Assembly (NCBI GenBank): GCA_964443325.1
Contig: CAYUCL010000006.1
Location: 14,644-78,643, forward strand
From: an uncultured Dehalococcoidales bacterium
GTDB lineage: Bacteria > Chloroflexota > Dehalococcoidia > E44-bin15
Direction of reading: 5' to 3'
Length of the DNA: 64,000 nt
Shown here: piece by piece, positions 20,659 through 63,799 of the stretch
How the letters are laid out: each line of letters begins with the position of its first letter
Position numbering within the stretch: position 1 is the first letter of the stretch
Made by a program: the position numbers and the translations under genes
The notes under the pieces: generated by a model
Database searches by the model: none
What the model was told of the DNA's origin: nothing
The model's input: only the letters and a program-made list of their open reading frames with translations

Positions 20659-20895
20659 ATGAAGAGCTGGTTATCTATGGGCCTTTCTCATAGGGGAGAG
20701 GCTTTATATTTTTTAGGTGGTATCGGTGGTGTTGTGCTTCAGACTATGGAGCGTCGCTATTCCGCGACACCCAAACAGGCTGAAAGCGTGTCGGCAGCGA
20801 ATCTATTGGATGAGGTGATATATCGTCACATCAAAACGGGTGACGGGCTGTGGTTGCCTGAAATTGCCGCTCTTTTTAGGAGGCACACGAAATGA
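20659..20895 (+). CDS. Hypothetical 78-aa protein in the leader of the giant sensor gene (stop overlaps its ATG as ATGA)
   Basis: ORF MKSWLSMGLSHRGEALYFLGGIGGVVLQTMERRYSATPKQAESVSAANLLDEVIYRHIKTGDGLWLPEIAALFRRHTK. I recognise no known domain. A weak GGCGGGGG lies upstream. It could be non-coding 5'-UTR. Confidence 0.25.
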   Translation: MKSWLSMGLSHRGEALYFLGGIGGVVLQTMERRYSATPKQAESVSAANLLDEVIYRHIKTGDGLWLPEIAALFRRHTK

Positions 20896-33279: not shown

Positions 33280-33568
33280 GATTGAAGTTAGAGAGGTCAG
33301 GGGCAAGTGCCCTGTTTATGAGGTTGGGGACAAGATAGTGGTAGACGACCCCAGGATATTACTGGATAGGACGGATGAACTCTGCACACACGCACTATCA
33401 ACCTTGCTCCATTACGTTACCATATTGGAGCACCACTGGTGTCCAGTGGAACTTGGATTGACCACCCCCGATGAGCCCGGGCATGCCTACATGCAGTGTG
33501 TTGATCCTGGTAGGCCCTACACTGAAGGTGGAACAGTGCTCTTTGAATGCCGTAGGATAGAAAAGTGA
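33272..33568 (+). CDS. Small Cys/His-rich protein (TIGR04076-like?), overlapping the GT2 stop
   Basis: MLEIEVREVRGKCPVYEVGDKIVVDDP...CTHALSTLLHYVTILEHHWCP...MQCVDPG...VLFECRRIEK. The ATG at 33272 overlaps the upstream TGA at 33277-33279. Family assignment is from memory and uncertain. Confidence 0.4.
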   Translation: MLEIEVREVRGKCPVYEVGDKIVVDDPRILLDRTDELCTHALSTLLHYVTILEHHWCPVELGLTTPDEPGHAYMQCVDPGRPYTEGGTVLFECRRIEK

Positions 33569-34647
33569 AAGTAGCAGTAATCCTTGGAACTCGCCCCGAA
33601 ATAATCAAGATGGCACCTGTGGTAAAGGAACTAGAACGGAGACACGTTGACTTCTTCATCCTTCATACCGGTCAACACTACTTCTATGACTTGGACAAGG
33701 TTTTTTTTGAGCAGTTGAAGCTACCGCAGGCCAAATACAACCTGGAGGTGGGCTCCGGTTCTCATGCTGAGCAGACAGCAGGAGTACTTATTGGCGTTGA
33801 GAAGGTCTTGCAAAAGGAAAACCCCGACATCGTTTTGGTAGAGGGCGATACCAACTCTGTTCTTGCTGGTGCCCTTTCCGCAGCGAAGCTCCACCTGGAA
33901 GTTGGCCATGTCGAGGCAGGTTTACGAAGTTACGACAGAAACATGCCAGAGGAAATCAACCGCACTCTGACTGACCATTGCTCCGATTATTTGTTTGCAC
34001 CAACTGATAATGCGAAGGCAATTCTCCTGGGTGAGGGTATCTCTGAAAAGAAGGTTTTTGTCACTGGTAATACTATTGTCGATGCAATCTTCCAGAACTT
34101 AGAAATTGCTAAAGGACGAATGGAAACCCTGAGTAAATTAAGTCTTAGGTCCAAGGAGTATTGCCTAGTCACCGTTCATCGTCAGGAGAATGTGGATGAC
34201 CAGGTAAGATTCGCCTCCATTCTAGAGGGACTGGAGAAGGTGGTAGACGAGTTTCATCTACCGGCAATCTATCCTATGCACCCCCATTCTTTGAGGAGAA
34301 TGAATGAGTTTCACCTAGCGCTGCAGAACCTCACGCTTATCGACCCCATCGATTTTCTGGGATTTACCCAGCTTGAGAGCAATGCAAAGCTTATCCTTAC
34401 CGACTCAGGGGGTGTACAGGAGGAAGCCTGCATCCTTGGCGTGCCTTGTGTCACCTTAAGGGACAATACCGAAAGATCTGAAACGGTCGAGGTTGGCGCC
34501 AACATGGTGGCTGGGACTTCGGCGGTTAAAATACTCGAATGTACCAGGGTGATGCTGACAGAGGGAAAGGGTTGGCAGAACCCCTTTGGTGATGGGAAAG
34601 CCGCCGAAAGGATAGTTAGCATAATTATGGAAGGAAGTGATGGCTAA
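33565..34647 (+). CDS. wecB: UDP-N-acetylglucosamine 2-epimerase (non-hydrolysing)
   Basis: MKVAVILGTRPEIIKMAPVV...HTGQHY...LVEGDTNSVLAGALSAAKLHLEVGHVEAGLRS...DSGGVQEEA. 360 aa. Canonical WecB/MnaA motifs. Confidence 0.88.
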   Translation: MKVAVILGTRPEIIKMAPVVKELERRHVDFFILHTGQHYFYDLDKVFFEQLKLPQAKYNLEVGSGSHAEQTAGVLIGVEKVLQKENPDIVLVEGDTNSVLAGALSAAKLHLEVGHVEAGLRSYDRNMPEEINRTLTDHCSDYLFAPTDNAKAILLGEGISEKKVFVTGNTIVDAIFQNLEIAKGRMETLSKLSLRSKEYCLVTVHRQENVDDQVRFASILEGLEKVVDEFHLPAIYPMHPHSLRRMNEFHLALQNLTLIDPIDFLGFTQLESNAKLILTDSGGVQEEACILGVPCVTLRDNTERSETVEVGANMVAGTSAVKILECTRVMLTEGKGWQNPFGDGKAAERIVSIIMEGSDG

Positions 34648-41076: not shown

Positions 41077-42963
41077 ATGAGTGGTATATGCGGCATAGTG
41101 CAAAGGGAACATGATATCCTACCCCAGAATCTGGAGCCTATGGTTAAGGCCATGGAGCATCGTGGTCCAGACGGTGCTGGCACAAGGTACTTTCCGGGAG
41201 TGGGTTTAGGCAATACTAGACTTGCCGTTATTGATCTCACCTCCGCTGGCAATCAACCAATGACCAATGAGGACGGCACTGTTTGGATTACTTATGATGG
41301 TGAAATTTATAACTATGGCGAACTCCGGGACAAGCTAATCAGCAAGGGGCACAGATTCAGCTCTGCAACCGATACCGAGGTCATCATTCACTTGTATGAG
41401 GAATACGGCAAGGATTGCCTTGGCTATCTGCGGGGAATGTTTGCTTTTGCTATCTGGGATGAGAGAAACAAGAGTCTTTTTCTAGCAAGAGATAGACTGG
41501 GTGTCAAGCCTCTGTACTATGTATATTATGGAGACAGGCTTATCTTTGCTTCAGAGATTAAGGCTATCCTCTCTGCCAAGCTTTTACCTAAGAAACTCAA
41601 TACCCAAGCAGTATTGGCCTATTTCTTGTTTGGCTCAATCCCGCCTCCACTTACCATCTTCGAAGGCGTAAACGTTCTCCCCCCAGGGCACCATATGGAG
41701 CTTCAAAATGGGCGTATGAATCCCCAAAGCTACTGGGAGCTTTCTTTCCAACCAAAAGAGAATATTGGGAAGGAGCAAGCCACCACCGAGCTCAGATCGC
41801 TACTGGAACAGGCTATGAATTCTCATATTATGAGTGATGCTCCATTAGGTGCCTTTATCAGCGGTGGTATTGACTCTTCAATTATAGTCGCAATTGTGAG
41901 TAGGCTGATTAGCAGTCCTCTAAGGACTTTCAGCATCACCTTTCCTGAAATATCCTTCAGCGAGTCTCATTTTGCTAGGCTCGTGGCTGCGAGGTTTGAA
42001 ACTAATCATACCGAATACGAGGTTACCAGCGACAATGTCAAGGACCAACTTACCGCCATAATCCGCGCTATGGACCAGCCAACGGTAGACGGGGTCAATA
42101 CCTACTTCGTTTCCAAAGCCGCCAGGGAGGCTGGAATCGTAGTAGCCCTATCTGGGCTTGGAGGTGATGAGCTCTTTCATGGCTACTCAAGCTTCACGGC
42201 GATTCCCAGGATGCACCGAAGACTGACCCCGTTGCGATATATGCCTGTCAGCATGCGGAAGCCGTTCTGCTGGCCCCTTTCCCGGGGTGCCCTTGGAGGA
42301 CATGGTAAGAAGTTAGCTTATCTGATATCTAGCGCTCTCTCCATAGAAGACATCTACTTCGCGTGGAGGTCTTGCTTTGTGGATAGTGATCTAGCTTGCC
42401 TGATTAACCCAGATGTCTGGCGTCAGGAGGACCTATCTGTGGGATCAGAGTATGTAAAAAGCATGGGTAGGAGGTGTAATGCTCGTGATCCTGTGGACAG
42501 AATATCCTTCTTGGAATTGATGACATATATGAGTAATCAGTTACTTTGGGATACCGATGTGATGAGCATGGCACATTCCCTAGAAGTGAGGACTCCTTAC
42601 TTGGACGATGTTCTGGTGGAATTCGCCTCCAAATTGCCCGCCAACCTTAGGAAGGCTGAGGGACGGCCAAAAGGACTGTTGCTAGAGTCAGTAGATGGTC
42701 TTCTGCCTCCGGAGGTCGTTGAGCGAAAGAAAATGGGGTTTGAGTTCCCATTTTATCTATGGCTTAGGGAAGGTCTAAGACCTTTAGTGTCAGAGGTTTT
42801 GTCTCCAAAGAACATTGAACAGCTCGGTCTACTTCAACCCAGAGCGGTTAGTTCCTTATGGCAGAATTTTCTCCATAGTAAGAAAGGTATTGGATGGTCA
42901 AGAGTTTGGGCAATACTTATCTTTCAGCTCTGGTGCAATGAGGTGCTAAGATCTCAGTCTTAG
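41077..42963 (+). CDS. Asparagine-synthetase-family glutamine amidotransferase (AsnB/WbpS-like)
   Basis: N-terminal ...ICGIVQ GATase-II domain with Cys at position 5 (MSGICGI). SGGIDSS PP-loop. About 628 aa. It sits inside the glycan cluster. Confidence 0.8.
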   Translation: MSGICGIVQREHDILPQNLEPMVKAMEHRGPDGAGTRYFPGVGLGNTRLAVIDLTSAGNQPMTNEDGTVWITYDGEIYNYGELRDKLISKGHRFSSATDTEVIIHLYEEYGKDCLGYLRGMFAFAIWDERNKSLFLARDRLGVKPLYYVYYGDRLIFASEIKAILSAKLLPKKLNTQAVLAYFLFGSIPPPLTIFEGVNVLPPGHHMELQNGRMNPQSYWELSFQPKENIGKEQATTELRSLLEQAMNSHIMSDAPLGAFISGGIDSSIIVAIVSRLISSPLRTFSITFPEISFSESHFARLVAARFETNHTEYEVTSDNVKDQLTAIIRAMDQPTVDGVNTYFVSKAAREAGIVVALSGLGGDELFHGYSSFTAIPRMHRRLTPLRYMPVSMRKPFCWPLSRGALGGHGKKLAYLISSALSIEDIYFAWRSCFVDSDLACLINPDVWRQEDLSVGSEYVKSMGRRCNARDPVDRISFLELMTYMSNQLLWDTDVMSMAHSLEVRTPYLDDVLVEFASKLPANLRKAEGRPKGLLLESVDGLLPPEVVERKKMGFEFPFYLWLREGLRPLVSEVLSPKNIEQLGLLQPRAVSSLWQNFLHSKKGIGWSRVWAILIFQLWCNEVLRSQS

Positions 42964-45638: not shown

Positions 45639-46490
45639 ATGAAACGCGGTCGTGAAGGTTATCCTCAGCAAATGCGAGATGTGAAGCGTATCCTGGACAG
45701 GGTCTTTGTGTACTCTGGGTCAAAAGCATTGTATTTTGGCGTCAAAAAGAAGGATGAGCATTCAATAAAGTGCCCAATACTGCTGTACCACACGATAGGC
45801 GATGGCGCTCTTTCGCCACGTCTACTGACTGAGCACATTGACTTCCTTTCTTCCCGTTTTCAGTTAATAACTCTAAGAGGTCTGTACCAAGGAGTAACCA
45901 GCGGTAATCTCCCCCAAAACCCCCTTGTTATAACCTTTGATGATGGGTATAGAGATAATTATGAGCTTGCTCTGCCAACACTTGAGAAATATCAAGTTGT
46001 CGCCACTGTATTTGTAGCCACAGGATATGTGGGCAGTCAATTTCAAGGGAAACCAACCATGACTCCAGGACAGATTAGAGCACTGGCAGACTATGGTATC
46101 GAGATAGGAGGCCATAGCGTGACACACCCTGACCTAAGGCAGCTAAACCGATGCGATCTGAGAAAGGAACTGGCGGCAAGCAAAGCCAGACTTGAGGACA
46201 TCACGGGTGTTGAACTGGTTTCATTTGCATATCCAAGCGGACTCTATAACTCCGAGGTCGTAGAAATGGTTGAAGAGGTCGGGTTCAAAATAGCTGTAAC
46301 CACGGTTCATGATTTCCTGGTGAACCCGGACAGGCTATTTGTGTGTCCACGCCTTCTGGTATATTCGTATGACTCTTGTAAGGATTTAGAAGCAAAACTA
46401 AATGGCGACCAACACTGGCTGAAGATGGCTCACATAGTCTCCCTACCGATGCTAAGTAGGCTGGAGGCTAAATCTGTTATTGGGGGGTGA
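45639..46490 (+). CDS. Polysaccharide deacetylase (NodB-homology, CE4)
   Basis: LITFDDGYRDNYELALPTLEKY...GGHSVTHPDL. The TFDDG and H-x-x-H-P motifs are present. Confidence 0.8.
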   Translation: MKRGREGYPQQMRDVKRILDRVFVYSGSKALYFGVKKKDEHSIKCPILLYHTIGDGALSPRLLTEHIDFLSSRFQLITLRGLYQGVTSGNLPQNPLVITFDDGYRDNYELALPTLEKYQVVATVFVATGYVGSQFQGKPTMTPGQIRALADYGIEIGGHSVTHPDLRQLNRCDLRKELAASKARLEDITGVELVSFAYPSGLYNSEVVEMVEEVGFKIAVTTVHDFLVNPDRLFVCPRLLVYSYDSCKDLEAKLNGDQHWLKMAHIVSLPMLSRLEAKSVIGG

Positions 46491-46567: not shown

Positions 46568-47341
46568 ATGTTGAGCGTGGAGAAGAGCGTGCTTTTATTC
46601 AAAGTCAAGGAAATACATTTCTCAGAGCATCCGTATGATGTCGAGGGATGCCATGTTGTAAGCTTTCCCTTATGCAGGGACAAGGTAGAAGCCGATGGTT
46701 TTACCAGAGTTGAGTCGCTGACTTCGGTTATCGACTTGACCCAGGATTTGGATGAAATATGGCGCAAATTGGACAAGAAATCTTCTCGATATTCGATAAG
46801 GCGGGCACAACAAGATGGAATCAATTTGAGGATAAATAGGGATTACGACGAATTCTATCAGATGAACAAGAACCTGCTGAAGAATAAGGGCTTCAGTACG
46901 ATATATGTTGTGGGGGTTCCAAAGGCCGATGTAATGGAAAAGTATGGCACCCTGTTTACTGCCGAACATAAAGGAGAGACCCTCGGAGGACATCTTTATT
47001 TGGAAGATGGGGCCAATATAAAGCTTTGGTACAGCGCTTCAAAGCGGTTAGGCGTGGATAGAGATAAGGCGACATTGATAGGCAATGCCAACCGCCTACT
47101 CCACTGGGAGGCAATAAAATACGCCAAAGACAAGGGCATAAAGGAGTTCGATTGGGGAGGGTTGTGCTCACAAGAGGAAGCCGATAAAGACGAGAGGCTG
47201 AAGGCGATAAATTCATTTAAGTTGAGTTTCGGCGGCGAAATAGTAACTTATTATTCCTATCAAAAAGTCTATTCCAAAGCCTATGAGCTAGCACAATTCC
47301 TGTATGGTTTGGCAAGTGGCGGAATAAGGCCGGTGAAATAG
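46568..47341 (+). CDS. FemAB-like / GNAT-type acyltransferase (Acetyltransf_6-like); tentative
   Basis: 257 aa. The family is assigned from overall pattern and EPS-cluster context only. Confidence 0.4.
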   Translation: MLSVEKSVLLFKVKEIHFSEHPYDVEGCHVVSFPLCRDKVEADGFTRVESLTSVIDLTQDLDEIWRKLDKKSSRYSIRRAQQDGINLRINRDYDEFYQMNKNLLKNKGFSTIYVVGVPKADVMEKYGTLFTAEHKGETLGGHLYLEDGANIKLWYSASKRLGVDRDKATLIGNANRLLHWEAIKYAKDKGIKEFDWGGLCSQEEADKDERLKAINSFKLSFGGEIVTYYSYQKVYSKAYELAQFLYGLASGGIRPVK

Positions 47342-53350: not shown

Positions 53351-54065
53351 TCAGGCCTGGTGCTGCAAAAATGGATCAGGCTTCTTTGAGGCAAGAATCA
53401 CGGTGTACAGTCCCGACTTGGTCATCCGGAGAATTGGCTCAACAATATGGTAGTATAGCCAGTAATGATTGCGAATCTTATAACATACCGGTTCGAAATA
53501 GCTGGTGTAGATCCTTTGAATTTTGAAATAGTCAGATAGCAGTTCTGTAAGTTCGTCGATTGCTAACCAGCTTTCGATTGGTTGATCCCCCTTTATATCT
53601 AGTGCATTAGCAACTCTCTTATTTGGCGTGGTCAATATCACATGGCCATCTTCAACCAAAAATTGATAAATCAATCTTATAAATTCTATTTGTTCGTCCT
53701 TGGCAAGATGCTCGATAACTTCAGATGATACAATCAGTTCATAGCCATTTTCCTCTATGGAGACATCAAAGAAAGGTGCGAAGATGAATAATGTGAGGAT
53801 ATCTCGCTTTAGCTATTGCAATAGCCGAATCCGAAATGTCTATCGCGGTTGTTTTGCCGTATTTTAACAAGTGACTGGTCAAATCACCGATGCCACAACC
53901 CAAATCCAAAATCCTAGCATTCTGCTTAAGTTTTACATATCGAAGAGCTGACATTACAGTATTGTGACGGCAGACGGCTTCCACCTTTAGTGCTACGCTT
54001 AGGCTTTCTTCTTTCCAAAACGCATTGTAGTATTCTATTATAGATTTTCGATTTGAACTTCCCAC
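53351..54065 (-). pseudogene. Class I SAM-dependent methyltransferase split by a frameshift (two ORFs: 53766-54065 N-terminal part, 53351-53674 C-terminal part)
   Basis: The N-terminal part carries motif I (ARILDLGCGIGDLTS) and ends ...HLRTFL*. Reading -1 across 53760-53775 continues FDVSIEENGYELIVSSEVIEHLAKDEQIEF and joins the downstream ORF (IRLIYQFLVEDGHVILTTPN). A single-base indel in TTTCTTT explains the split. Confidence 0.6.
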
Positions 54066-54110: not shown

Positions 54111-55016
54111 CTATTGCCTGTTAACCTTTGAACTTTGGCATAGAAGTGGAGTGCACCCCCATGGTTGGACAGGTAGGGTTAGTCCTTCCCAGGAAGGATG
54201 GCGGAGTAGCACGGTCTCTGGCTGAACAAGCAGAGACTCTTCAAACTCATTCGGTGGGCGATAACCCAGAGCCGAATGAAGCCTCTTCCGATTATAGACC
54301 TCCTCAATGAAGTAAGGAAGTCTTTCCAGTACATCTTTTAAAGTCTCATATTCACACAGGTAAACCTCCTCGTACTTAAGAGTCTTGAAAAAGCTCTCTA
54401 TCACGGCATTCTCATAGGGGTTACCCGCCCGGGCCATGCTGATTTGAAACCCATGCCCCCTGAGCTCGGCCGTGTACTCATCTGAGGCATACTGCACTCC
54501 CTGGTCAGAGTGATGAATGACCCCTATGCCAGGCTGTCTTTCACCTATCGCCATGCGCAATGCCCTCAGTGCCAACGCTGTATCCAAGCTGGTAGAGATT
54601 GCATACCCGATAACCCGCCTAGAAAAGGCATCCAGAATGGCTGCCAGGTAGACAAAGCCAGTCCGGATACGGATGTAAGTGATGTCGGGCAACCATACCT
54701 GACTCAGCCGGCTGACAGTCACCCCTTTGATAAGATTGGGATACCTGGGGAAGCGATGTCGGCTATCAGTGGTTTTCACCCACTTACGCCTCACCCGGCA
54801 CAGCAGATCACTTTCCCTCATTAACCGCAGTACCTTCTTGTGATTCACTACCCATCCCTCTCGCTGCAGTTGTTTGGTAACCCTGCGACATCCGTATCGG
54901 GGAAACTCAAGGCAAATAGCTTCAATACGGTCCACCAGGTCAGCCTCTGCTTCCATCCGGTCGGGGCTTTTGGTTTTGGGTTTGTAGTAGAAACTGCTCC
55001 TTGCAAGGTTCATCAA
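54111..55016 (-). CDS. IS3 transposase OrfB (DDE integrase core, rve)
   Basis: 301 aa. D...D...E region (VWLPDITYIRI...HHSDQGVQYAS...ENAVIESFFKTLKYE) typical of the IS3 rve domain. Expressed as an OrfAB fusion by -1 frameshift. Confidence 0.8.
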   Translation of the reverse strand: MMNLARSSFYYKPKTKSPDRMEAEADLVDRIEAICLEFPRYGCRRVTKQLQREGWVVNHKKVLRLMRESDLLCRVRRKWVKTTDSRHRFPRYPNLIKGVTVSRLSQVWLPDITYIRIRTGFVYLAAILDAFSRRVIGYAISTSLDTALALRALRMAIGERQPGIGVIHHSDQGVQYASDEYTAELRGHGFQISMARAGNPYENAVIESFFKTLKYEEVYLCEYETLKDVLERLPYFIEEVYNRKRLHSALGYRPPNEFEESLLVQPETVLLRHPSWEGLTLPVQPWGCTPLLCQSSKVNRQ

Positions 55017-55454
55017 TCGACACCCCCGCCGGATATTGCTGACGAGGCATCCCCACCGTGCAATGACTTCGCGTTTCTTCTCGACTGGCTGAGGCTGTTC
55101 TGTAACCCCTTTTTTAGGAATTCGTTCTCCAGGGTCAGCCTACCCACCAATCGCTCCAATTGCTCGATCCTGTCCCTAAGACCACCTTCTTCAGTGGGCT
55201 CATTATCAAACTTGCCCCGGCTATATTGCTTCCTCCAGTGGTGAATTAAGCTTGATTGGATATTGTATCTACGGCAGATCTGAGCAGGGCGACTTTCGCC
55301 ACTGAGCAACTCCTCGACTATCTGGCGCTTAAACTCTACACTGAAACTCCTCTGGTTCCTCATGGCAAGATCCTTTCTATCCCTTATTATAACGTTACTC
55401 CGACCCTGCCAAACAGTCCTAACCCAAAGTGTCCAGTTTCAGGGGTTCACTCCA
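54147..55454 (-). mobile_element. IS3-family insertion sequence (1308 bp) with terminal inverted repeats and a 3-bp target-site duplication AAG
   Basis: IRL TGGAGTGCACCCCCATGGTTGGACAGGTAGGGTTAG matches IRR (reverse complement) TGGAGTGAACCCCTGAAACTGGACACTTTGGGTTAG, with TG...CA termini. AAG flanks both ends (54144-54146 and 55455-55457). OrfA and orfB have an A-AAA-AAG slippery site. Confidence 0.8.
55013..55363 (-). CDS. IS3 transposase OrfA (HTH)
   Basis: 116 aa. RRYNIQSSLIHHWRKQY HTH. It contains the CTA-AAA-AAG-GGG slippery heptamer (+ strand 55110-55120), after which the -1 frame stays open into orfB. Confidence 0.8.
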   Translation of the reverse strand: MRNQRSFSVEFKRQIVEELLSGESRPAQICRRYNIQSSLIHHWRKQYSRGKFDNEPTEEGGLRDRIEQLERLVGRLTLENEFLKKGLQNSLSQSRRNAKSLHGGDASSAISGGGVD

Positions 55455-55655: not shown

Positions 55656-56795
55656 TTAATCTATACCCCCTTTAGTTTCCTCTTTAAGCTCTTCATAAAT
55701 CTTCTCCACCCTACTCATCTCCTTTTCATAACTTGCTTTTTCCTCAACTAATTTCCGGTTAGCTTTTCTAGCATTTTCCCTTAGGTCTTCATCTCTCAGC
55801 AGGCAAACAATTCTTTCAGCCAATAACTCCGGGCTCTTTACGGGGATTACAAATCCATTCTCGCTATCGCTCACCCATCTTTTGGCATCACCTGCATCGG
55901 TAGTAACAATGGCAAGTCCACAAGCAAGTGCTTCTATCAAGCTAATAGAGGCACCGTCGGAGAGAGATGTCGAAACATAAATATCCGCTGATGCCAGATA
56001 TTTGGGGAGTTCATTATGAGGTATCCAGCCTACAAACCTTGTGCTCTCCCATATGCCAAGTGATTTTGCCAGTCCTTCAAGGTAACCTCTCTGTGACCCC
56101 TCGCCAGCAATTACAAATCTTGTGTCAGGAGCTTGAGATAAAACTGAAGGGATAGCTTTAATAAGCGTTTCGACATCGTATACTGGCTCAAAATTCCGAA
56201 TACTAATAACAGTGAATGAATCTGATACCTCCAAACTTGACCTAAGTTTCTCATCTTTCGGTTGGGGGTAAAATTTTCGCATGTCTATGCCTAAAGGGGC
56301 TGCCTTTACTTTTTCGGGCTCTATACCTAGTTTTATGACTCCTTCCCTGGGCTTTGCACCAAAACAAAGTATCACCTCTGCCTCTCCTAATGCCTTCTTC
56401 ATTAAATTGACATGCTTCTCGCCAAACCGTTTCGGAGCAAGTAAAACATCGCTACCCCAGATGGTTATAATAAAGGGATGGAATTGTAGACGTGAGGCAG
56501 GAATCCCATAGCTTGTGAGATAATGGGCATCCAATACATCTGGTTTAATCTCTTCGAGAAGCTTTCTCCTTTTCTTCGTTTCATAGCGCTCGTGCAAAAA
56601 ATGGAAAACACGCGCAATGATAGGGATCTTATAAGGAAAAGAGGATGTGGATGAGGAGATATCATAAACATGGGCACCCTCTATTTCAGCGGGTTCGGGG
56701 GTAATTACATGAACCTCGTGTCCTTTGTCTATGAAGTACTTCATCCATCTCTTTAGATGGATACTTTGGGGATTGCCGTAATAACAGATTCTCAT
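55656..56795 (-). CDS. Family-4 glycosyltransferase
   Basis: MRICYYGNPQSIH N-terminus and C-terminal RFVGWIPHNELPKYLASADIYVSTSLSDGASISLIEALACGLAIVTTDAGD. Confidence 0.8.
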   Translation of the reverse strand: MRICYYGNPQSIHLKRWMKYFIDKGHEVHVITPEPAEIEGAHVYDISSSTSSFPYKIPIIARVFHFLHERYETKKRRKLLEEIKPDVLDAHYLTSYGIPASRLQFHPFIITIWGSDVLLAPKRFGEKHVNLMKKALGEAEVILCFGAKPREGVIKLGIEPEKVKAAPLGIDMRKFYPQPKDEKLRSSLEVSDSFTVISIRNFEPVYDVETLIKAIPSVLSQAPDTRFVIAGEGSQRGYLEGLAKSLGIWESTRFVGWIPHNELPKYLASADIYVSTSLSDGASISLIEALACGLAIVTTDAGDAKRWVSDSENGFVIPVKSPELLAERIVCLLRDEDLRENARKANRKLVEEKASYEKEMSRVEKIYEELKEETKGGID

Positions 56796-57008: not shown

Positions 57009-58151
57009 CTAAGTTCTGGCATATTCGTCTCCTTTCGTCTCGCTCACATGGGTCGATATGATGTCATGTAATGTATCCGCTCGTCTCTTCCAAGTATTAT
57101 CTTGCTTAAGCTCGTGCAGTTCTCTGCTTAATTTCATCCTTTCGCTGGGATTACTAAGTAGGTATTCCAGCTTCTCGTAAAAATCCTCCGCGGAATAATC
57201 GACCCATAAGAAACCTTTTCCATCGCTGATCATCTTCAAGCCCTCGCATCGCGTTGCTATGAAGGGAATCTCTGAACCGATATACTCAAAGAATTTGGTT
57301 GGCCTAGTAGTGTTATGGTAGGGGATATTGGGATTGGCGGGATAGGCAAATACATCTACATCAGAGAAACAGGATAATAGTTTTGTCCTCGGCACGGTCT
57401 TGTGTATGATAAACTGTGACTCCTCAATCTTTCTCTCCGTTTTTTCAACCAGAAGAGCCATTTTCCCAAAAAGGAGAAGCTTGACATATGGATACTTCTT
57501 GTGCAACGTAATGGCTGCGTTAACCACGAGGTTGATACCCTCATCCGGTACGATGGCTCCAGCATAAGCGATATTGAACCTGTCCTTGTAAATCTCATAT
57601 CTCAGGTTGGCAAATTCTTCTTCCTCAAGCCCTCCTGGCAAAACTGCTGTTTCATATTCAGGATACTTGCTGGACACAACAACCAGGATGTCGGACATCC
57701 CAACAAGCTCCTCCTCCAGCTTTCGCAGTGGCGCGACCTCCTCAGGGCTTCTGCCTCTTATCTCATATTGTTCCACCCAGTCATGTCCATACATTAGAAG
57801 CTTCACACCAATCTTCCTGGCAAACCTTAGCAGTGGAACGTTGAAGCTGTCGCTGAAGACTACATTTGGATATGAGAAATAGATAAAATCTGGACGCCAG
57901 AGAAGGATTATCAGGAATGATAAGGAGGGTATTGTGAAGTGATAGAATAGATCGATAAACCAATTGAGTCTAGAATAGCTATCTGAGTATTTCTGCTTAT
58001 ATTCGAAAGGGATGTAGATTAAACTGATGTCCTCTTTCTGTTTTAAGTACATCAAGATGTAGTGAATACGTATGAAAGTTCCACTCACCCTATCGCTGAG
58101 CCTATCGACGATCTTACCCTCAACTAAGGCAAAAATCTTGATCTTCTTCAT
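57009..58151 (-). CDS. Glycosyltransferase (GT-B, GT4-like)
   Basis: C-terminal TKFFEYIGSEIPFIATRCEGL is an E-x7-E-type motif. 380 aa. Confidence 0.6.
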   Translation of the reverse strand: MKKIKIFALVEGKIVDRLSDRVSGTFIRIHYILMYLKQKEDISLIYIPFEYKQKYSDSYSRLNWFIDLFYHFTIPSLSFLIILLWRPDFIYFSYPNVVFSDSFNVPLLRFARKIGVKLLMYGHDWVEQYEIRGRSPEEVAPLRKLEEELVGMSDILVVVSSKYPEYETAVLPGGLEEEEFANLRYEIYKDRFNIAYAGAIVPDEGINLVVNAAITLHKKYPYVKLLLFGKMALLVEKTERKIEESQFIIHKTVPRTKLLSCFSDVDVFAYPANPNIPYHNTTRPTKFFEYIGSEIPFIATRCEGLKMISDGKGFLWVDYSAEDFYEKLEYLLSNPSERMKLSRELHELKQDNTWKRRADTLHDIISTHVSETKGDEYART

Positions 58152-58170: not shown

Positions 58171-59337
58171 CTATTGTTGAAGTTTTGCCTTGGAAATAGT
58201 CGACTTGATTTCATCTGCTATTCTTTCTATCTGGCGACCGCTAAGTTCTGGATACATTGGAAGGGAAATAACCTCCTCCTGAGCGCGCTCGCTTTGTGGG
58301 AAATCGCCTGGTTTATGACCCAGATATCCATAGATCGGCTGAAGATGCAGGGAGAGCGGGTAATAGACGGCTGTGGTAATGCCACGGGAAGCCAGATACT
58401 CTCGTAATGCATCCCTATACCCACCAGAATTCCTTATGCGGATGGTGTAGTAGTTGAAAATGTGGTAACTGGCAGAGGCTACATAAGGCGGTTCGACACC
58501 TTCAACTTCGGTTAGAAACTGGGAATAGAGTCCGGCATTGCGCCGCCGCTGGCCAATCCACTCATCCAAGTACCTCAGCTTGACCCGAAGGACCGCGGCC
58601 TGCAACTCATCCAGGCGGCTATTGAATCCGGGAATGAGGTGGTAGTATTTCTCCTTGCAGCCGTGATTACGGAGCATTGCTATTTCCTCAGCGATAGCCG
58701 CATCGTTTGTAACCACCATTCCTCCGTCCCCGTAAGCACCGAGAATCTTGCTGGGGAAGAAACTCAGGCAGCCGGCGTCACCGAGAGAGCCGGCTCTGTT
58801 CCCCTCATATCTCGCTCCAAGAGCCTGGGCGCAGTCCTCGATGACTTTGAGGTTATGTTTCTTGGTGAGTGCCACTATAGGGCCCATATCTGCTGGTTGA
58901 CCGTAGAGATGAACGGGAAGGATGGCCCTGGTGTTTTCAGTTATTTTGGGCTCGATATTGGCAGGTTCGATATTAAGGGTTTTGGGGTCTATATCCACAA
59001 AAACCGGCGTAGCACCGCATTTGGCTATTGCCTCAGCAGTGGCGATGAAGGTGAATGGTGTGGTGATGACCTCGTCACCCGGTCTAACTCCACAGGCGAG
59101 AAGGACAAGCTGCAGCGCATCGGTTCCCGAGGCAACCCCTATTGCATATTTAACACCAAGGTAGGCAGCAACCTCTTCTTCAAAGGCTCTGACTTCGGGT
59201 CCAAGGATGAACTGCCCCTGCTGCATAGCCTGATGAATGGCAGCTTCAATCTCTTGTCCTATTGAGTTGAATTGTGCCTTGAGATCGACTAAGGGAATAA
59301 TCATTTTCCCTGTGATCTGCTTCCTAGTATTTATCAC
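58171..59337 (-). CDS. DegT/DnrJ/EryC1/StrS-family PLP-dependent sugar aminotransferase (WbpE-like)
   Basis: 388 aa. GVASGTDALQLVL..., active-site Lys region SFFPSKILGAYGDGG, AIAEEIAMLRNHG. Confidence 0.85.
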   Translation of the reverse strand: MINTRKQITGKMIIPLVDLKAQFNSIGQEIEAAIHQAMQQGQFILGPEVRAFEEEVAAYLGVKYAIGVASGTDALQLVLLACGVRPGDEVITTPFTFIATAEAIAKCGATPVFVDIDPKTLNIEPANIEPKITENTRAILPVHLYGQPADMGPIVALTKKHNLKVIEDCAQALGARYEGNRAGSLGDAGCLSFFPSKILGAYGDGGMVVTNDAAIAEEIAMLRNHGCKEKYYHLIPGFNSRLDELQAAVLRVKLRYLDEWIGQRRRNAGLYSQFLTEVEGVEPPYVASASYHIFNYYTIRIRNSGGYRDALREYLASRGITTAVYYPLSLHLQPIYGYLGHKPGDFPQSERAQEEVISLPMYPELSGRQIERIADEIKSTISKAKLQQ

Positions 59338-59519
59338 TTTGATGTCCTGCGCAACGAGTAATGCCTTCCCTATATTTTGTACAAACTAGGAAATAGAAAT
59401 CGCCGAACTGTCTTAACAACGATGCCTTGCATAGTGTTCTTTCCATTGTGCATTATTCTATGTAGATTCGTGTTTAGGTGTTTCTGCGGTCATTCAAATG
59501 CGATGCTTACTATTCGGGA

Positions 59520-60836
59520 CTATATTACGATGTAATCCAAGTACCTGATCATTTCTCTTCCATCTTGAATGCTAATCTCGCCAATCGGGTCGCCTAGCAT
59601 CAGCTTCATCATTAACAGGGGAATGTTCAGGCCAGCACTTGCAGCAAGTGGCATCCCACCAGACGCAAATCTCGGGTTCACCTCCAGAAACACCAATTCT
59701 TCGTCCCTTTTGATAACCTGGACGTTCGACGGACCTATGAGTCCTAGAAGCTCTACTATCCTCTTGCTCTCACATATAAGGGCCGGATCCATCTCCACTT
59801 GTGCCACGACAGCCAGTCCGCCTTTCACAACTACTCGTCGCAGAGGGACGAGGCCAACCACCTTGCCATCGAAATCCGAGACGATATTCACTGTGTATTC
59901 CGTTCCCTCGACGTATTGCTGGACAACAGGATCAGGGGTTCTATTCATGAAAAAGGCCAGTTCATCTTTGCTTTCGATTTTACGAACGTATGCCGAACCT
60001 GAGCCAAAGCGTGATTTGATAAGCAGGGGGTATTCGCTCTCAGGAATGTCTGCTGAATCATAGATCCTTGGATGAGTGGCCCCTTGTTTGTGAAAAAACT
60101 CTGCTATTGCCCGCTTGTCATCGCATATCCTGAGCTTGTCCAATGATGATATTGCGAGTTTCACTCCTATGTCCTGAAACAGCTTCTGGTTATAGCTGTA
60201 AAACGGCAGCTCGACTGAGTGAGTGGGCATTAAAATACTAACACCGAATTGCCTACAGATGTTTGATATGAAGTCTCGAAAAGACGGTTCGGATACCCTA
60301 GGAGCTATCTCATATTCATCGGCCAGATGCAGGCCTGCGGCGTGCGGACTAGAGTCAATTGCAATGATTCTTGTTTGGTATTCCTGTTGGCTGCGCAGAG
60401 CCTGTATAACATTAACGCCGTTGGTGGAACCGGCAGCCGAGACAAGCACAGTGACCGCTTTTCGCACATGAGTATTTTGCGACTGCACCAGTTTATTTGT
60501 TTTCTGCTCAATAGTGCTTAGGAGCGTATTCCAAATATCGGACCAGTCGGTCAACGAGATAGCTCTATCGTCCACGAAGATGTCAGCTACAGGTTTTCCC
60601 AGAACCAAATGATGGTACTTTATCCCGTACCGGCTGAGTTGAGTCAATGTAAGTTCCAACTCCCTGTAAGTTCTGGCTGTATATATGATAATTGTATGCC
60701 CCATTGCGTACAGAGCATTGACAGCGTCAACTGCTCCATCAATTGGAGCTGCTGTTGATCTTTTAGGCTCCTCCTTTTCTTGAAGTATCGTTCCATCCAG
60801 GTCGATTGCGATTCTCAAGTGGTCTCTGCTCTTCAT
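59520..60836 (-). CDS. Fusion protein: N-terminal HAD-like hydrolase domain plus C-terminal ATP-grasp ligase domain
   Basis: Start MKSRDHLRIAIDLDGTIL (HAD motif I DxDGT) ...IIIYTARTY...FVDDRAI. The second half has an ATP-grasp fold (ILMPTHSVELPF...LLIKSRFGSGSAYVRKIES...QQYVEGTEYTVNIVSDFDGKVVGL...LEVNPRFASG). ATG at 60836 overlaps the upstream stop as ATGA. Confidence 0.65.
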   Translation of the reverse strand: MKSRDHLRIAIDLDGTILQEKEEPKRSTAAPIDGAVDAVNALYAMGHTIIIYTARTYRELELTLTQLSRYGIKYHHLVLGKPVADIFVDDRAISLTDWSDIWNTLLSTIEQKTNKLVQSQNTHVRKAVTVLVSAAGSTNGVNVIQALRSQQEYQTRIIAIDSSPHAAGLHLADEYEIAPRVSEPSFRDFISNICRQFGVSILMPTHSVELPFYSYNQKLFQDIGVKLAISSLDKLRICDDKRAIAEFFHKQGATHPRIYDSADIPESEYPLLIKSRFGSGSAYVRKIESKDELAFFMNRTPDPVVQQYVEGTEYTVNIVSDFDGKVVGLVPLRRVVVKGGLAVVAQVEMDPALICESKRIVELLGLIGPSNVQVIKRDEELVFLEVNPRFASGGMPLAASAGLNIPLLMMKLMLGDPIGEISIQDGREMIRYLDYIVI

Positions 60837-61798
60837 TGCCGCCCTGCCTCCAGGAGATGTTGGAGAGCCTCCAGGGTTTGCACCACCTCGAGCCCCAGTT
60901 TGCCGTCTGATAGAGGTTTGCTGCGGTCTTCCATGCAGTGGACAAACTGCTGGCATTCAAGCAATAAGGGCTCACTATGGGCCAGCGGTGGTGAGGACTG
61001 CCCCGACGACCTTGTCAGAAGAGTGTCATTAGCTGCCCCTTTGTCATGTATTTGGAGTTTGAATTGCGGCTCCATATCATCGAAGATTGCCATCTTTTCG
61101 CTTCCTACTACGGTGAGTTGACGTGTTTTATGAGGATCGAGCCAACTGGCATGAATGTGAGCCAGAATACCACCCGGGAATTCTAGCGTAGCAAAAACAA
61201 CATCCTCCAGATGGGGCTGGAGGTAGCACGAGCCGTGCGCTGAGACAGGTACAGGCGAACTATCAAGCAGGTAGAGAAATACCGCGATGTCGTGGGGAAC
61301 GAGCCGCCAAAGCGCACTTTCGTCGCGGCGGATTTGTCCCAAATTAACCCTAGTGGAGTATAGATAGTAGATATCACCCAGCTCGCCGGATTGAATATAT
61401 TGTTTCAGCATTTGAACCGCTGGATGATAAAGTAGCAAATGACCGCTCATGAGAATCCGGTGGTCATCGTGGGCAAGTTGCACCAGTTCGCCGGCGTCCC
61501 GAGCGTTGGTCGTAAATGGTTTTTCCACAAAGACATCTTTGCCCGCTAACAGCGCTTCCTTTGCCATGGAGTAGTGCAATGCTGCTGGAGAGGCAATAAC
61601 TACGCCTTCTATTTCGTTGTTGGCAAGGACTTGCTGATAACTTCGCTCGGCGTTTGCTCCGGGATAGCGCAAAGCAAGCTCCTCCAGGGTGTCGGGGTCG
61701 GCATCACAAATGATATGCAGGGCGCCGAGTTCGGCGAAGTTGCGCACCAAGTTCCTACCCCAGTATCCACAGCCAATAACCGCTATGTTTCCTTCCAT
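60833..61798 (-). CDS. Gfo/Idh/MocA-family NAD(P)-dependent oxidoreductase (WbpB-like UDP-sugar 3-dehydrogenase candidate)
   Basis: MEGNIAVIGCGYWGRNLVRNF Rossmann motif, EKP motif (DVFVEKPFT). 321 aa. Confidence 0.8.
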   Translation of the reverse strand: MEGNIAVIGCGYWGRNLVRNFAELGALHIICDADPDTLEELALRYPGANAERSYQQVLANNEIEGVVIASPAALHYSMAKEALLAGKDVFVEKPFTTNARDAGELVQLAHDDHRILMSGHLLLYHPAVQMLKQYIQSGELGDIYYLYSTRVNLGQIRRDESALWRLVPHDIAVFLYLLDSSPVPVSAHGSCYLQPHLEDVVFATLEFPGGILAHIHASWLDPHKTRQLTVVGSEKMAIFDDMEPQFKLQIHDKGAANDTLLTRSSGQSSPPLAHSEPLLLECQQFVHCMEDRSKPLSDGKLGLEVVQTLEALQHLLEAGRQ

Positions 61799-61801
61799 AT
61801 T

Positions 61802-63109
61802 CTATTCACCTAGCCTGACAATGTTATCGCCGTTCAATCCTTTTGTGACTCCTCTGGTATCAAAGACCAATTTGGACGATGCAACTATCTTCTCGATGTC
61901 ATAGCAACTGTGGGCTGTCGCTATTACTACGCAGTCTAGGGACGACAAACATTTATCAGTGAGTTCTGTCGAGATTAGAACATCATGATCGTGTTGGACC
62001 GTGGGAATGTAGGGATCATTGTATCTCATGCTAGCTCCCCGTTCGCCAAGAAGTTGGATTATTTTCAGGGAAGGGGACTCCCTGATGTCTTCAACATCTT
62101 TCTTATAGGCGACCCCCAGCACCAAGACCTTTGCCCCACAAAGGCTCTTGCCATGGCTGTTGAAGACCTCCATTATGCGTGACACTACATGATAAGGCAT
62201 TTGCTCGTTAACCTCGGCGGCAACTTCAATGAACCTGGTATGGAAGTCATATTCCCTGGCCTTGTTACTCAGATAGTATGGGTCGAGGGGAATACAATGA
62301 CCTCCAAGTCCGGGTCCGGGGTAAAAAGGCATGTAGCCGAAAGGCTTGGTAGCGGCGGCATCAATGACTTCCCAGACGCTTATGCTCATTCTCTCACAAA
62401 GCTGGGCAAGCTCATTGACCAGGGCGATATTCACGCTACGAAAGACGTTCTCAAATAACTTGGTCATCTCGGCTACTTCGGGACAGGACACGGGAGCAAC
62501 GGCTTCGGCTACCTGACTATAAAGGAGTGCAGCAATTCTGGTCGATTGTGGATCTATCCCACCTACTATCTTGGGAATATTCTGGATGTTGTAAGTTTCG
62601 TTGGCGGGGTCAGCTCTTTCTGGTGAGAACGCAAGGTAGAAATCTGAGCCTGCCTTGAGTCCGGAACGTTCCAAGATAGGTAAAACCACCTCCCTCGTAG
62701 TGCCTGGATAAGTGGTGCTTTCAAGAACCACCAGTTGCCCTCTCTGGAGACGCTTTGAAATTTCCTCAGATTCGTGGATCACAGCCGACAGATCTGGTTC
62801 CTTTGTCTTGGTTAGTGGAGTGGGAACACATATGCAGATGGCATCTACTTCCCCAAGCCTGCTCTGGTCTACCGTTGCCTCGAGAACCCTGTCTACCACT
62901 ATGGCCGAAAGGCGATCACTTGTAACATCAGCGATATAGGACTTACCGCTATTGATTGAATTGACTCGTTTTTCCTGGATATCGAACCCAAGAACTTTGA
63001 AGCCTGCGTCCGTAAAAGCAGCGGCGAGAGGGAGGCCAACATAGCCAAGCCCTATTATGCCTAATTTGGCTGACCTATCTTTGATCTTTTCTTTCAATAA
63101 GCTTGGCAA
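61802..63109 (-). CDS. Nucleotide-sugar dehydrogenase (UDP-N-acetyl-D-glucosamine/mannosamine 6-dehydrogenase, WbpA/WecC-like)
   Basis: KLGIIGLGYVGLPLAAAF N-terminus and catalytic Cys region (GGHCIPLDPYYL). 435 aa. It is the first gene of the - arm. Confidence 0.85.
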   Translation of the reverse strand: MPSLLKEKIKDRSAKLGIIGLGYVGLPLAAAFTDAGFKVLGFDIQEKRVNSINSGKSYIADVTSDRLSAIVVDRVLEATVDQSRLGEVDAICICVPTPLTKTKEPDLSAVIHESEEISKRLQRGQLVVLESTTYPGTTREVVLPILERSGLKAGSDFYLAFSPERADPANETYNIQNIPKIVGGIDPQSTRIAALLYSQVAEAVAPVSCPEVAEMTKLFENVFRSVNIALVNELAQLCERMSISVWEVIDAAATKPFGYMPFYPGPGLGGHCIPLDPYYLSNKAREYDFHTRFIEVAAEVNEQMPYHVVSRIMEVFNSHGKSLCGAKVLVLGVAYKKDVEDIRESPSLKIIQLLGERGASMRYNDPYIPTVQHDHDVLISTELTDKCLSSLDCVVIATAHSCYDIEKIVASSKLVFDTRGVTKGLNGDNIVRLGE

Positions 63110-63365
63110 GACTCCCCCTAAAGATTTGGGTACCTCGAATTTCCAACAATTAAGTGCGTTTATTCCCGATGTGGCAGGTCATTTGTCTGGAGTTTTAACC
63201 CCGCCGGCGTAGCTATCACAACTCGACGGTAACACCAAAGCCACGTGACTTTGCCCTATGAGAATATGCGAATTTTGCCTTTCTGGAGCAGGATGTTACA
63301 TCTCTAGCTCTACTTGCCCGACTCAGTTGCTCACGTGCCTAAACTACTGCGTAATGGAGCGCCGC

Positions 63366-63410
63366 GCAATCGGGAAATACCTGAGTTAGGGCTTCGAAAT
63401 ACCTGAGTTG
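63366..63410 (-). repeat. URE copy J in reverse orientation (reverse complement reads CTCAGGTATTTCGAAGCCCTAACTCAGGTATTTCCCGATTGCGCGGCGCTCCATTACGCAGTAGTTTAGG)
   Basis: It is the only copy on the - strand. It lies about 230-260 bp upstream, in the - sense, of the first - strand glycan gene, whose start is at 63109. Confidence 0.75.
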
Positions 63411-63799
63411 GTCATGGAGGAATGCGGATGTAGGAAGTGGTTGGCTCCCTGAACCTTCTCCGGTGTGTGGTTGCCGTTAAGGCCTCATACGTCAGCATGT
63501 TAGTGTGGCTTTAAAAAGCCATATGTCGGTTCCTGGGGGTATTCCTTAATGAGACGAGTTAGTGATTTACGCACGCAGATTAGTAATGCTTTGCTATGAC
63601 GTTGCTTCGGATAGAAGCGGATTCTTTCCTGTTTCTTCCACGCTTTCTCTTCGTGTTACAGCTCTATCTGGGCCGATTCGTGCCCATTGCATATGAGGTG
63701 AAACAATCCCAGGTAATTTGATACTCAAAGTGTAGCCCTAGCTAACCAATCATATCATCCAGGAAGGATGGGATTACCCAGAAGACAAACTCCGTCTCT

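Follow-up and report, generated by a model that had tools for sequence, protein, structure and literature searches.

The window analyzed here, a stretch of 64,000 nucleotides from an uncultured Dehalococcoidales bacterium, carries on its minus strand a gene (59520..60836) in which a HAD phosphatase domain is joined to an ATP-grasp carboxylate-amine ligase domain. Comparison with other genomes indicates that such a fusion is no isolated oddity: a cassette of ligase and phosphatase, which has no name, is widespread, and the fusion is one of its forms. With a confidence a little short of even, we propose from its sequence and context that the protein would be a bifunctional tailoring enzyme that N-acylates the 3-amino group of a sugar with a phosphorylated acid, in the place of WbpD, and whose HAD domain would then remove the phosphate. 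The data establish what the two domains are, that their catalytic motifs are complete, that the fusion is authentic, and that ligase, phosphatase, and aminotransferase are linked in a conserved manner; we infer that the 3-amino group is the acceptor, which of the two reactions comes first, and which acid is used. The gene and its parts are as follows:

59520..60836, minus strand: gene for the HAD phosphatase and ATP-grasp ligase fusion (open reading frame (ORF) and translation; Pfam, NCBIfam, and PDB matches; AlphaFold2 (AF2) model)
60495..60836, minus strand: cap-less (C0) HAD phosphatase domain, residues 1-114 (motifs in alignment; profile matches to PDB)
60465..60494, minus strand: disordered linker, residues 115-124 (predicted local distance difference test (pLDDT) below 50)
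59523..60464, minus strand: ATP-grasp carboxylate-amine ligase domain, residues 125-438 (PylC-like_N plus ATP-grasp_3, PRK12767-like; Pfam, NCBIfam, 2pn1, and Foldseek)

The ORF has 439 codons with the stop counted, and therefore the product, which begins MKSRDHLRIAIDLDGTIL, is 438 residues long and not 439, as a preliminary description of this DNA had given. The same description placed the gene between an oxidoreductase and an aminotransferase and coupled it to its neighbor by an ATGA overlap. Both points were borne out: a Gfo/Idh/MocA-family (Gfo) gene lies upstream and a DegT-family aminotransferase gene downstream, and plus-strand positions 60833-60836 read TCAT (ATGA on the minus strand), where the ATG of the fusion gene (60836-60834) shares bases with the TGA of the Gfo gene (60835-60833). 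A GGAGG sequence is present approximately 10 nt 5' of this ATG, and homologs of the fusion protein begin with MK(S/K/R)RD..RIAIDLDGT. A longer ORF, called mechanically from 60956, would add 40 residues; we rejected this start, since those residues overlap the upstream gene and no homolog has them. At the other end, approximately 180-215 bp (the 59338-59519 region) separate the fusion stop from the DegT start; the two genes overlap in the related locus L001 and are 66 bp apart in locus L004. A terminator and promoter scan of 59200-63500 gave counts not above those of shuffled sequence, with no convincing minus-strand terminator or promoter in the gap between the fusion and DegT genes.

The N-terminal part had been described as HAD phosphatase-like, and the matches agree. 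All four HAD motifs are complete (motif I, D12-L-D14-G-T16; motif II, T53; motif III, K81; motif IV, D89-D90), Pfam Hydrolase_3 matches residues 9-68 (E 7e-5), passing narrowly with 23.1 bits against a cut-off of 20.9, and the best solved structure by sequence is 9iqw, a 134-residue 'capsule biosynthesis protein' (E 9e-9). In an alignment of 10 HAD domains, D12, D14, K81, D89, and D90 are invariant, and T53 is nearly so. One close fusion homolog (P0004) has DLEGT for DLDGT in motif I, which turns the Asp+2 general acid into Glu and could reflect natural variation or a sequencing error. A profile of window-type HADs matches 9iqw (7e-27), 1xpj (2e-19), and 2obb (1e-5), and over residues 8-120 the domain matches the NCBIfam models for the BT0820-type HAD phosphatase and for TIGR01689, 'capsule biosynthesis phosphatase' (EcbF/BcbF). 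It missed the cut-offs of these named subfamilies (NF046079 (BT0820), 37.4 vs. 165 bits; TIGR01689, 24.7 vs. 162 bits), and these scores place it as a relative of BT0820 and EcbF/BcbF, not as an equivalog. It resembles the small cap-less HADs (BT0820 family/2obb, TIGR01689, 9iqw, and 1xpj) in size, absence of a cap, and the four motifs; however, those proteins stand alone or are joined to nucleotidyltransferases, whereas the window HAD is joined to a ligase. A literature search for 'capsule biosynthesis phosphatase', BcbF, EcbF, BT0820, and PDB 9IQW returned nothing relevant and no published substrate. The same small domain type also lies in the middle of nucleotidyltransferase proteins of about 600 residues ('capsule biosynthesis phosphatase') and is found joined to a cytidylyltransferase-like domain (P0060, P0066-P0074), and therefore this HAD family serves several different glycan pathways.

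The C-terminal part was likewise found to have the ATP-grasp carboxylate-amine ligase fold claimed for it, by Pfam, by its match to 2pn1, and by the AF2 model searched with Foldseek. Pfam returned PylC-like_N at residues 131-227 (E 3e-13; 50 bits vs. a cut-off of 27), ATP-grasp_3 at residues 238-391 (E 1e-20; 74.7 vs. 23.2 bits), and ATPgrasp_Ter (72.4 vs. 29.1 bits); NCBIfam PRK12767, 'CPSase-like', matched residues 128-437, and the best solved structure by sequence was 2pn1 (E 6e-29). The AF2 model, built from a 22-sequence alignment, has a mean pLDDT of 87.8, with two well-folded parts on either side of the disordered residues 115-124 and values of 87-98 across residues 130-430. Foldseek returned ATP-grasp enzymes only, namely 2pn1 (E 3e-25; template modeling (TM) score of 0.81 on the target), PylC (4ffl; TM 0.68), biotin carboxylases, and PurT. 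The PRK12767 equivalog cut-offs were missed (193 vs. 390 bits and 189 vs. 218 bits). Thus, by motifs, hidden Markov models, and fold, the fusion protein belongs to the ATP-grasp and HAD superfamilies but is an equivalog of no named NCBIfam family. Both 2pn1 (PRK12767-type), a structural-genomics entry without an assigned function, and PylC, which joins 3-methylornithine to lysine, have the fold and domain order of the window ligase (PylC-like_N plus ATP-grasp_3); unlike the window protein, neither has a HAD domain. Among 82 homologs, K241, K274, E313, E385, N387, and R389 are conserved at 98-100%, and R334 is also invariant or nearly so; by analogy with other ATP-grasp enzymes, the first six would bind the nucleotide and Mg, as two Lys, the hinge Glu, the Mg ligands of the E-x-N motif, and an Arg. 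Elsewhere in the same ATP-grasp family, fusions involve a Bac_transf phosphoglycosyl transferase, Glycos_transf_4 (WecA/MraY-like), a hexapeptide-repeat segment, or tandem ATP-grasp pairs (P0294, P0340, P0284, P0216, and P0333), and some family members may act at the lipid-linked stage.

The preliminary description had allowed that two ORFs might have been fused by a sequencing frameshift, and the evidence speaks against this. The exact 438-residue protein is recorded on four contigs from three sources (NCBI, JGI, and Logan), and the search for the same fusion elsewhere that the description had recommended returned six further homologous fusions in the window order, 50-71% identical, in independent assemblies (P0002-P0006 and P0010), plus other architectures. 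The closest genome of the one-per-species set, a metagenome-assembled genome labeled Dehalococcoidales (L004/L005; such taxonomic labels may be wrong), has a cluster syntenic with the window at 55-73% protein identity, in which Gfo, a 119-residue HAD, a 314-residue ATP-grasp, and DegT are separate genes in the same order as in the window (60-69% identity). The stand-alone HAD gene (L004:9637-9996) is 61% identical to the window HAD domain, and the ATP-grasp gene is 66% identical to its window counterpart. At the junction of these two genes in L004, a TGA stop is followed by 4 nt and a GTG start, whereas the window has no stop there and keeps the GTG as an in-frame Val. By this comparison, the linker (residues 115-124) arose at the point where an ancestral stop codon and the spacer between the genes disappeared. 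An artifact of assembly or sequencing, with a frameshift or a missing stop codon making one gene out of two, is, despite the 4-nt spacing in the nearest genome, extremely improbable, since the fusion was recovered repeatedly and the frame runs continuously across the 10-residue linker with the ancestral GTG retained. The fusion gene is genuine.

Relatives of the ligase were collected by a scan of one genome per species, which returned 142, of which the best 80 were examined, and their neighborhoods were compared by tblastn and phmmer on six-frame ORFs. Homologs in the Nitrososphaerales (about 30% identical) have no partner genes; at about 33 of the approximately 37 other loci, a HAD phosphatase is encoded within about 3 kb of the ATP-grasp gene. 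The partner is either of two unrelated HAD types, the small cap-less type or the HAD_2 family. In the window clade, the small HAD precedes the ATP-grasp; in the Phycisphaerae, the order is Gfo, ATP-grasp, HAD (115 residues), and DegT, all as separate genes; and in the Blastocatellia, Gfo and ATP-grasp are followed by a HAD-methyltransferase fusion. Elsewhere, a HAD_2 phosphatase replaces the small HAD (Methanosarcinales, Ignavibacteria, Bacteroidota, Patescibacteria, Hodarchaeota, and others), for example in the order GT2, ATP-grasp, HAD_2, DegT, and Gfo in the Methanosarcinales and Gfo, ATP-grasp, SDR, methyltransferase, and HAD_2 in the Ignavibacteria. In a representative library of 1.84 billion proteins, the window order of HAD before ATP-grasp has one representative (P0010), the reverse fusion with a C0 HAD has seven (P0212, P0223, P0226, P0234, P0238, P0293, and P0298), and ATP-grasp fused to HAD_2 has at least two (P0279 and P0334), with P0094 as a third; HAD-methyltransferase fusions were seen in L007, L010, P0054, and P0057. 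Judged from these proteins, the ligase-phosphatase fusion has at least three architectures. The non-orthologous replacement of the phosphatase and the several independent fusions are strong evidence that the ligase and the phosphatase serve one pathway step. One genome can carry two versions of the module, as indicated by a second pair of ATP-grasp and HAD_2 genes in L001 (13740-15921), approximately 8 kb away from the fusion gene; this pair is accompanied by a radical-SAM enzyme and a methyltransferase and adjoins DegT and a 4,6-dehydratase-like gene. Among cultured organisms, Halobacteroides halobius DSM 5150 (P0039) is a carrier of the cassette.

The preliminary description did not recognize the domain fusion from characterized glycan pathways. 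In one respect this stands: at least 1279 proteins match the archaeal ATP-grasp profile at E<=1e-30, and among the matches listed (the best 120 of 1279) the database names are all generic, e.g., 'ATP-grasp domain-containing protein' or 'carbamoyl-phosphate synthase large subunit'. However, the fusion is not alone, being one form of a widespread cassette that is split in the nearest genome. A Pfam census of 141 neighboring ORFs at 16 taxonomically diverse loci counted ATP-grasp 17 times, Gfo 14, HAD_2 13, methyltransferase 13, DegT 11, and SDR 8; hexapeptide/GNAT acetyltransferases and UDP-sugar 6-dehydrogenases were not recurrent among them. The gene for one fusion of ATP-grasp and HAD_2 (P0094) lies in a nonulosonic-acid cluster that includes NeuB, DegT, a CMP-transferase, and two dehydratases and has neither Gfo nor a uronate dehydrogenase. 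A sugar aminotransferase is, as far as the neighborhoods indicate, the common denominator of all cassette contexts. Our literature search found no paper naming ATP-grasp together with WbpB, WbpE, or WbpD.

Within the window, the fusion gene belongs to a minus-strand operon in a wider glycan cluster (approximately 32-63 kb), whose relevant features are listed below:

61802..63109, minus strand: UDP-N-acetylhexosamine 6-dehydrogenase (WbpA/WecC/Cap5O-like), the first operon gene in the window (three UDPG_MGDP_dh domains; TIGR03026, 433 bits; PDB 3g79, 4r16, and Cap5O)
60833..61798, minus strand: Gfo/Idh/MocA sugar 3-dehydrogenase (WbpB/GnnA-like; Pfam; PDB 7bvj, E 2.5e-22)
58171..59337, likely start ATG at 59304, minus strand: DegT-family sugar aminotransferase (C3 group; WbpE/QdtB/DesV-like; Pfam DegT, E 4e-130)
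57009..58151, minus strand: group-1 glycosyltransferase, downstream in the same operon (Pfam; 73% identical to the syntenic L004 gene)
55656..56795, minus strand: GT4 glycosyltransferase, downstream in the same operon (Pfam; 62% identical to the syntenic L004 gene)
54111-55363, minus strand: IS3-family element (orfA 55013-55363, orfB 54111-55016; ORF list), between the GT4 and methyltransferase genes
53351..54065, minus strand: S-adenosylmethionine (SAM) methyltransferase gene, frameshifted near 53788-53790 (Pfam on the N-terminal fragment; two tblastn high-scoring segment pairs in different frames against the intact L004 gene)
41077..42963, plus strand: asparagine-synthase-like glutamine amidotransferase, WbpS-type by inference (Pfam Asn_synthase, 1e-83, and GATase_7; 67% identical to the syntenic L004 gene)
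33565..34647, plus strand: UDP-GlcNAc 2-epimerase family gene (WbpI/WecB-like; Pfam Epimerase_2, 1e-112)

The top NCBIfam match of the Gfo gene was a model of archaeal UDP-GlcNAc 3-dehydrogenase, with a score under its cut-off. Its match to 7bvj spans the full length, whereas WlbA (3q2k/3q2i) is matched at E 1e-11 over the N-terminal part only, and therefore the enzyme may act on UDP-GlcNAc rather than on the uronic acid. By its PDB matches (QdtB, 4e-99; 2oga, 1e-94; WbpE, 3e-93), the DegT protein groups with C3-aminotransferases. The AsnB-like amidotransferase is a candidate for converting the C6 carboxyl of the uronate to an amide. The methyltransferase ortholog is intact in the syntenic L004 cluster (15355-16047).

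The five-enzyme Wbp pathway to UDP-2,3-diacetamido-2,3-dideoxy-D-mannuronic acid consists of WbpA, WbpB, WbpE, WbpD, and WbpI (PMC10622841). By family-level match, WbpA-, WbpB-, WbpE-, and WbpI-like genes are all in the window, whereas the WbpD-type step, acylation of the 3-amino group, is unrepresented in its cluster, and the fusion gene stands directly between the WbpB-like and WbpE-like genes. No hexapeptide (WbpD-like) N-acetyltransferase was found among the scanned ORFs of the 32-63 kb glycan cluster; the sole Hexapep protein found in the window is a GlmU-like gene at 10316-11656, outside the cluster.

The wider cluster also contains SDR epimerases/dehydratases, further glycosyltransferases, a flippase, a polysaccharide deacetylase (45639-46490, plus strand), and a FemAB/GNAT-like gene (46568-47341, plus strand). 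FemAB-type enzymes attach amino acids to amines from aminoacyl-tRNA, and therefore the glycan may bear a second, tRNA-dependent aminoacyl decoration. Genes for UDP-GlcNAc supply lie upstream of the cluster (phosphoglucosamine-mutase-like, 8976-10340; the GlmU-like gene; and GlmS, 12168-13940). The 2272-30029 region is dense in PAS/GAF/GGDEF/HD-GYP signaling proteins, including one of 1764 residues with at least eight PAS domains (20892-26186), and the GGDEF/HD-GYP and OmpR-type regulators encoded in the window mark it as bacterial. In the related cluster, a GNAT acetyltransferase and a second ATP-grasp replace the UDP-sugar 6-dehydrogenase of the window (L004 6994-8558; L005 5358-6919). This second ATP-grasp is 24% identical to the first, and that cluster thus employs two different ATP-grasp ligases. 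DUF1616, also encoded in L004, hinted at archaea, but an archaeal origin of the window was rejected in view of its regulators and of the Dehalococcoidales label of its nearest genome.

Enzymes of the ATP-grasp family convert a carboxylate to an acyl phosphate and transfer the acyl group to a nucleophile, usually an amine. With neighbors that make an amine, no acetyltransferase, and a steady phosphatase that often has a methyltransferase fused to it or next to it, the simplest account of the cassette is to acylate, dephosphorylate, and methylate. In the pathway that we propose, the Gfo-type dehydrogenase would oxidize C3 of a UDP-N-acetylhexosamine (or its uronic acid), and the DegT enzyme would aminate it. 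The ATP-grasp domain would then turn the carboxylate of a small phosphorylated acid into an acyl phosphate, on which attack by the 3-amino group of the sugar would give an amide. The cap-less HAD domain would cleave the phosphate ester on the attached group and expose a hydroxyl, which in intact cassettes the SAM methyltransferase may methylate. The 6-dehydrogenase and the AsnB-like amidotransferase would provide the uronic acid or uronamide. Of the functions offered in the preliminary description, acylation of the sugar amine is thus favored by the comparative context, in which the ATP-grasp tracks DegT and Gfo across phyla and not 6-dehydrogenases or acetyltransferases and no WbpD-like gene was seen, while amidation of the uronate carboxyl is kept as the main rival. 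Its suggestion that the HAD domain dephosphorylates an acyl-phosphate intermediate is unlikely, since this would undo the ligase reaction. A phosphate ester on the ligated group is the likelier target, because fusions of ligase with phosphatase and of phosphatase with methyltransferase recur and because of a precedent in Campylobacter jejuni (Cj1438C/Cj1435; PMC11800397).

Our best guess for the acyl donor is 3-phospho-D-glycerate, which would leave an N-glyceroyl group. This acid is favored because no gene of the operon would make a special donor, because its acyl phosphate would be the familiar chemistry of 1,3-bisphosphoglycerate, and because a sugar of the predicted type exists. By a related chemistry, in FkbH/OzmB-type glyceryl loading, a phosphoglyceryl unit is first captured from an acyl phosphate of the 1,3-bisphosphoglycerate type, a HAD-superfamily domain then strips its 3-phosphate, and the glyceryl group is later O-methylated; this is an analogy only. 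There, the acyl group goes to a carrier-protein thiol and not to a sugar amine, and no ATP-grasp domain is involved. The existing sugar is in the N-glycan of Methanoculleus marisnigri, which is reported to contain a 2,3-diamino-glucuronic acid with a C6 amide and with acetate and glycerate as its N-acyl groups (PMC11407970); the 6-dehydrogenase and AsnB-like amidotransferase of the window would account for the uronamide of such a sugar. A 2017 paper stated that the genes behind N-glyceroyl substitution were not known and described those for Pse5Am7Gra of Tannerella forsythia as an open challenge (PMC5378307). It is possible, though we put this forward only tentatively, that the cassette of ATP-grasp and HAD, with or without the methyltransferase, is a widespread, so far unassigned route to amino sugars with hydroxy-acyl groups such as N-glyceroyl or O-methyl-glyceroyl, in which 3-phosphoglycerate would be activated by ATP, joined to an amine, and dephosphorylated.

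Several observations weigh against acylation followed by dephosphorylation. The ATP-grasp and HAD clades go under generic database names throughout. The window clade (window, L001, and L005) has N317 and L332 (codons at approximately 59886-59888 and 59841-59843) where the other 79 of the 82 aligned members, HAD-less Nitrososphaerales included, have Asp and Arg; the changes are paired and could reflect a lost salt bridge between neighboring strands or a shift in substrate specificity, and therefore the specificity of this clade may differ from that of the rest of the family. When 34 HAD-linked and 48 HAD-less ATP-grasps were compared, only positions G136, F272, L397, and M429 differed, with no added conserved basic residues in the HAD-linked group and hence no phosphate-pocket signature. 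The methyltransferase gene of the window is frameshifted, and the methylation step of the cassette may have been lost here, unless this is a sequencing error. No named homolog from Methanoculleus, whose species M. marisnigri makes N-glyceroyl sugars as T. forsythia does, appeared among the matches listed (the best 120 of 1279). Finally, the 6-dehydrogenase at the head of the window operon makes a uronate carboxyl available as an alternative substrate of the ligase, and HAD_2 enzymes often act on small metabolites, so that the phosphatase could act before the ligase. The last two points lead to alternatives in their own right.

With the uronate carboxyl as substrate, the enzyme would amidate it in the manner of the C. 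jejuni HS:2 capsule: the C6 carboxylate of a (2,3-diamino)uronic acid would be coupled to a phosphorylated amine (e.g., ethanolamine-P, serinol-P, O-phosphoserine, or O-phosphothreonine), either while the sugar is still bound to the nucleotide or once it has joined the growing glycan, and the HAD domain would then remove the phosphate. This reading, which we regard as unlikely though well worth weighing, has a biochemical precedent. Cj1438C is reported to link glucuronate to serinol-P or ethanolamine-P, with later removal of the phosphate by the HAD enzyme Cj1435 (PMC11800397; PMC11800379); as in our proposal, a ligase of the ATP-grasp fold makes an amide on a surface sugar with a phosphorylated partner before a HAD enzyme acts. 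Both systems lie within a glycan cluster, beside a sugar dehydrogenase and glycosyltransferases. The 6-dehydrogenase that opens the window operon is also present in L001 and about 5 kb away in L087, and Methanococcus N-glycans contain amino-acid amides of ManNAc(3NAm)A (PMC11407970). However, the two systems differ in their parts. The Cj1438C ATP-grasp is described as TupA-like and is joined to a GT2 polymerase (PMC11800379), whereas the window domain belongs to another family (PylC-like_N/ATP-grasp_3) with no ATPgrasp_TupA match in the Pfam scan; Cj1435 is a separate 25.7-kDa protein, whereas the window HAD is a cap-less, 114-residue BT0820/TIGR01689-type domain fused to the ligase. C. jejuni has Cj1436 (decarboxylase) and Cj1437 (transaminase) for synthesis of the phospho-amine, and no counterparts were found in the window: there is no pyridoxal 5'-phosphate (PLP) decarboxylase among the ORFs scanned in the 30-63 kb cluster, and the only PLP enzyme of the operon is the relative of the C3 sugar aminotransferases. 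Context also argues against the carboxyl as acceptor. DegT and Gfo recur as neighbors across the 16 diverse loci whereas the 6-dehydrogenase does not, no such dehydrogenase stands at this position in the syntenic L004 cluster, and the nonulosonic-acid cluster of P0094 has no uronate pathway. Moreover, the AsnB-like amidotransferase could already modify C6, and the 3-amino group would be left without an acylating enzyme. The likely acceptor, by context, is thus a sugar amine in the window, as opposed to the uronate carboxyl in C. jejuni, and by analogy the fusion protein would work like the Cj1438C/Cj1435 pair while not being a member of that system.

The proposed order, ligation before dephosphorylation, is what the next alternative reverses. 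Here the HAD domain would free an acid from a central metabolite (3- or 2-phosphoglycerate to glycerate, 2-phosphoglycolate to glycolate, or phosphoserine to serine), and the ATP-grasp would ligate the free acid to the sugar amine to give the same product. At most loci the small HAD is replaced by a HAD_2 enzyme, and this family includes phosphatases of small metabolites; in addition, a fusion would channel the released acid to the ligase, and a ligase acting on a free acid would fit the missing phosphate-pocket signature. The window HAD, however, is cap-less (about 114 residues), and cap-less HAD phosphatases usually take large substrates; the HAD-methyltransferase fusions better fit the unmasking of a hydroxyl on the final conjugate, followed by methylation; and the sole characterized ligase and HAD pair is reported to ligate first (PMC11800397). 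We consider this order rather improbable.

Ordinary aminoacylation, in which the ATP-grasp would add an unphosphorylated amino acid (e.g., L-Ala, as in GlcNAc3NAlaA-type sugars) to the sugar amine while the HAD domain has an unrelated role in the pathway (for example, on sugar phosphates, nucleotides, or the phosphate of a lipid carrier), is more doubtful again. ATP-grasps are typical amino-acid ligases, with PylC and Ddl among the structural neighbors, N3-alanyl diamino-uronic acids occur in some O-antigens, and the small HAD is joined to nucleotidyltransferases elsewhere (P0060, P0067, and P0073). Nevertheless, it leaves unexplained why, at about 33 of 37 loci, the ligase has a phosphatase partner of one or the other HAD family, and why fusions of at least three architectures exist.

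The N-acyl groups that decorate the surface sugars of bacteria and archaea set antigenicity, recognition by phages and lectins, and vaccine epitopes, and many of these groups (glyceroyl, alanyl, hydroxybutyryl, and others) have no enzyme assigned to them. Here, a large, generically named family is tied systematically to a phosphatase and to sugar aminotransferases in both Bacteria and Archaea, which provides an assignment that can be tested, namely an N-acyl ligase that depends on ATP and takes a donor masked by phosphate, and in the window fusion a convenient single-polypeptide target for expression. If the assignment is true, it would improve the annotation of thousands of glycan clusters and offer a new enzyme for the chemo-enzymatic preparation of modified nucleotide sugars. 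If the N-glyceroyl route is true as well, it would reveal the missing genes behind N-glyceroyl sugars, such as the 2,3-diamino-glucuronamide of M. marisnigri and possibly Pse5Am7Gra of T. forsythia, and the window gene would be the single-polypeptide version of that route.

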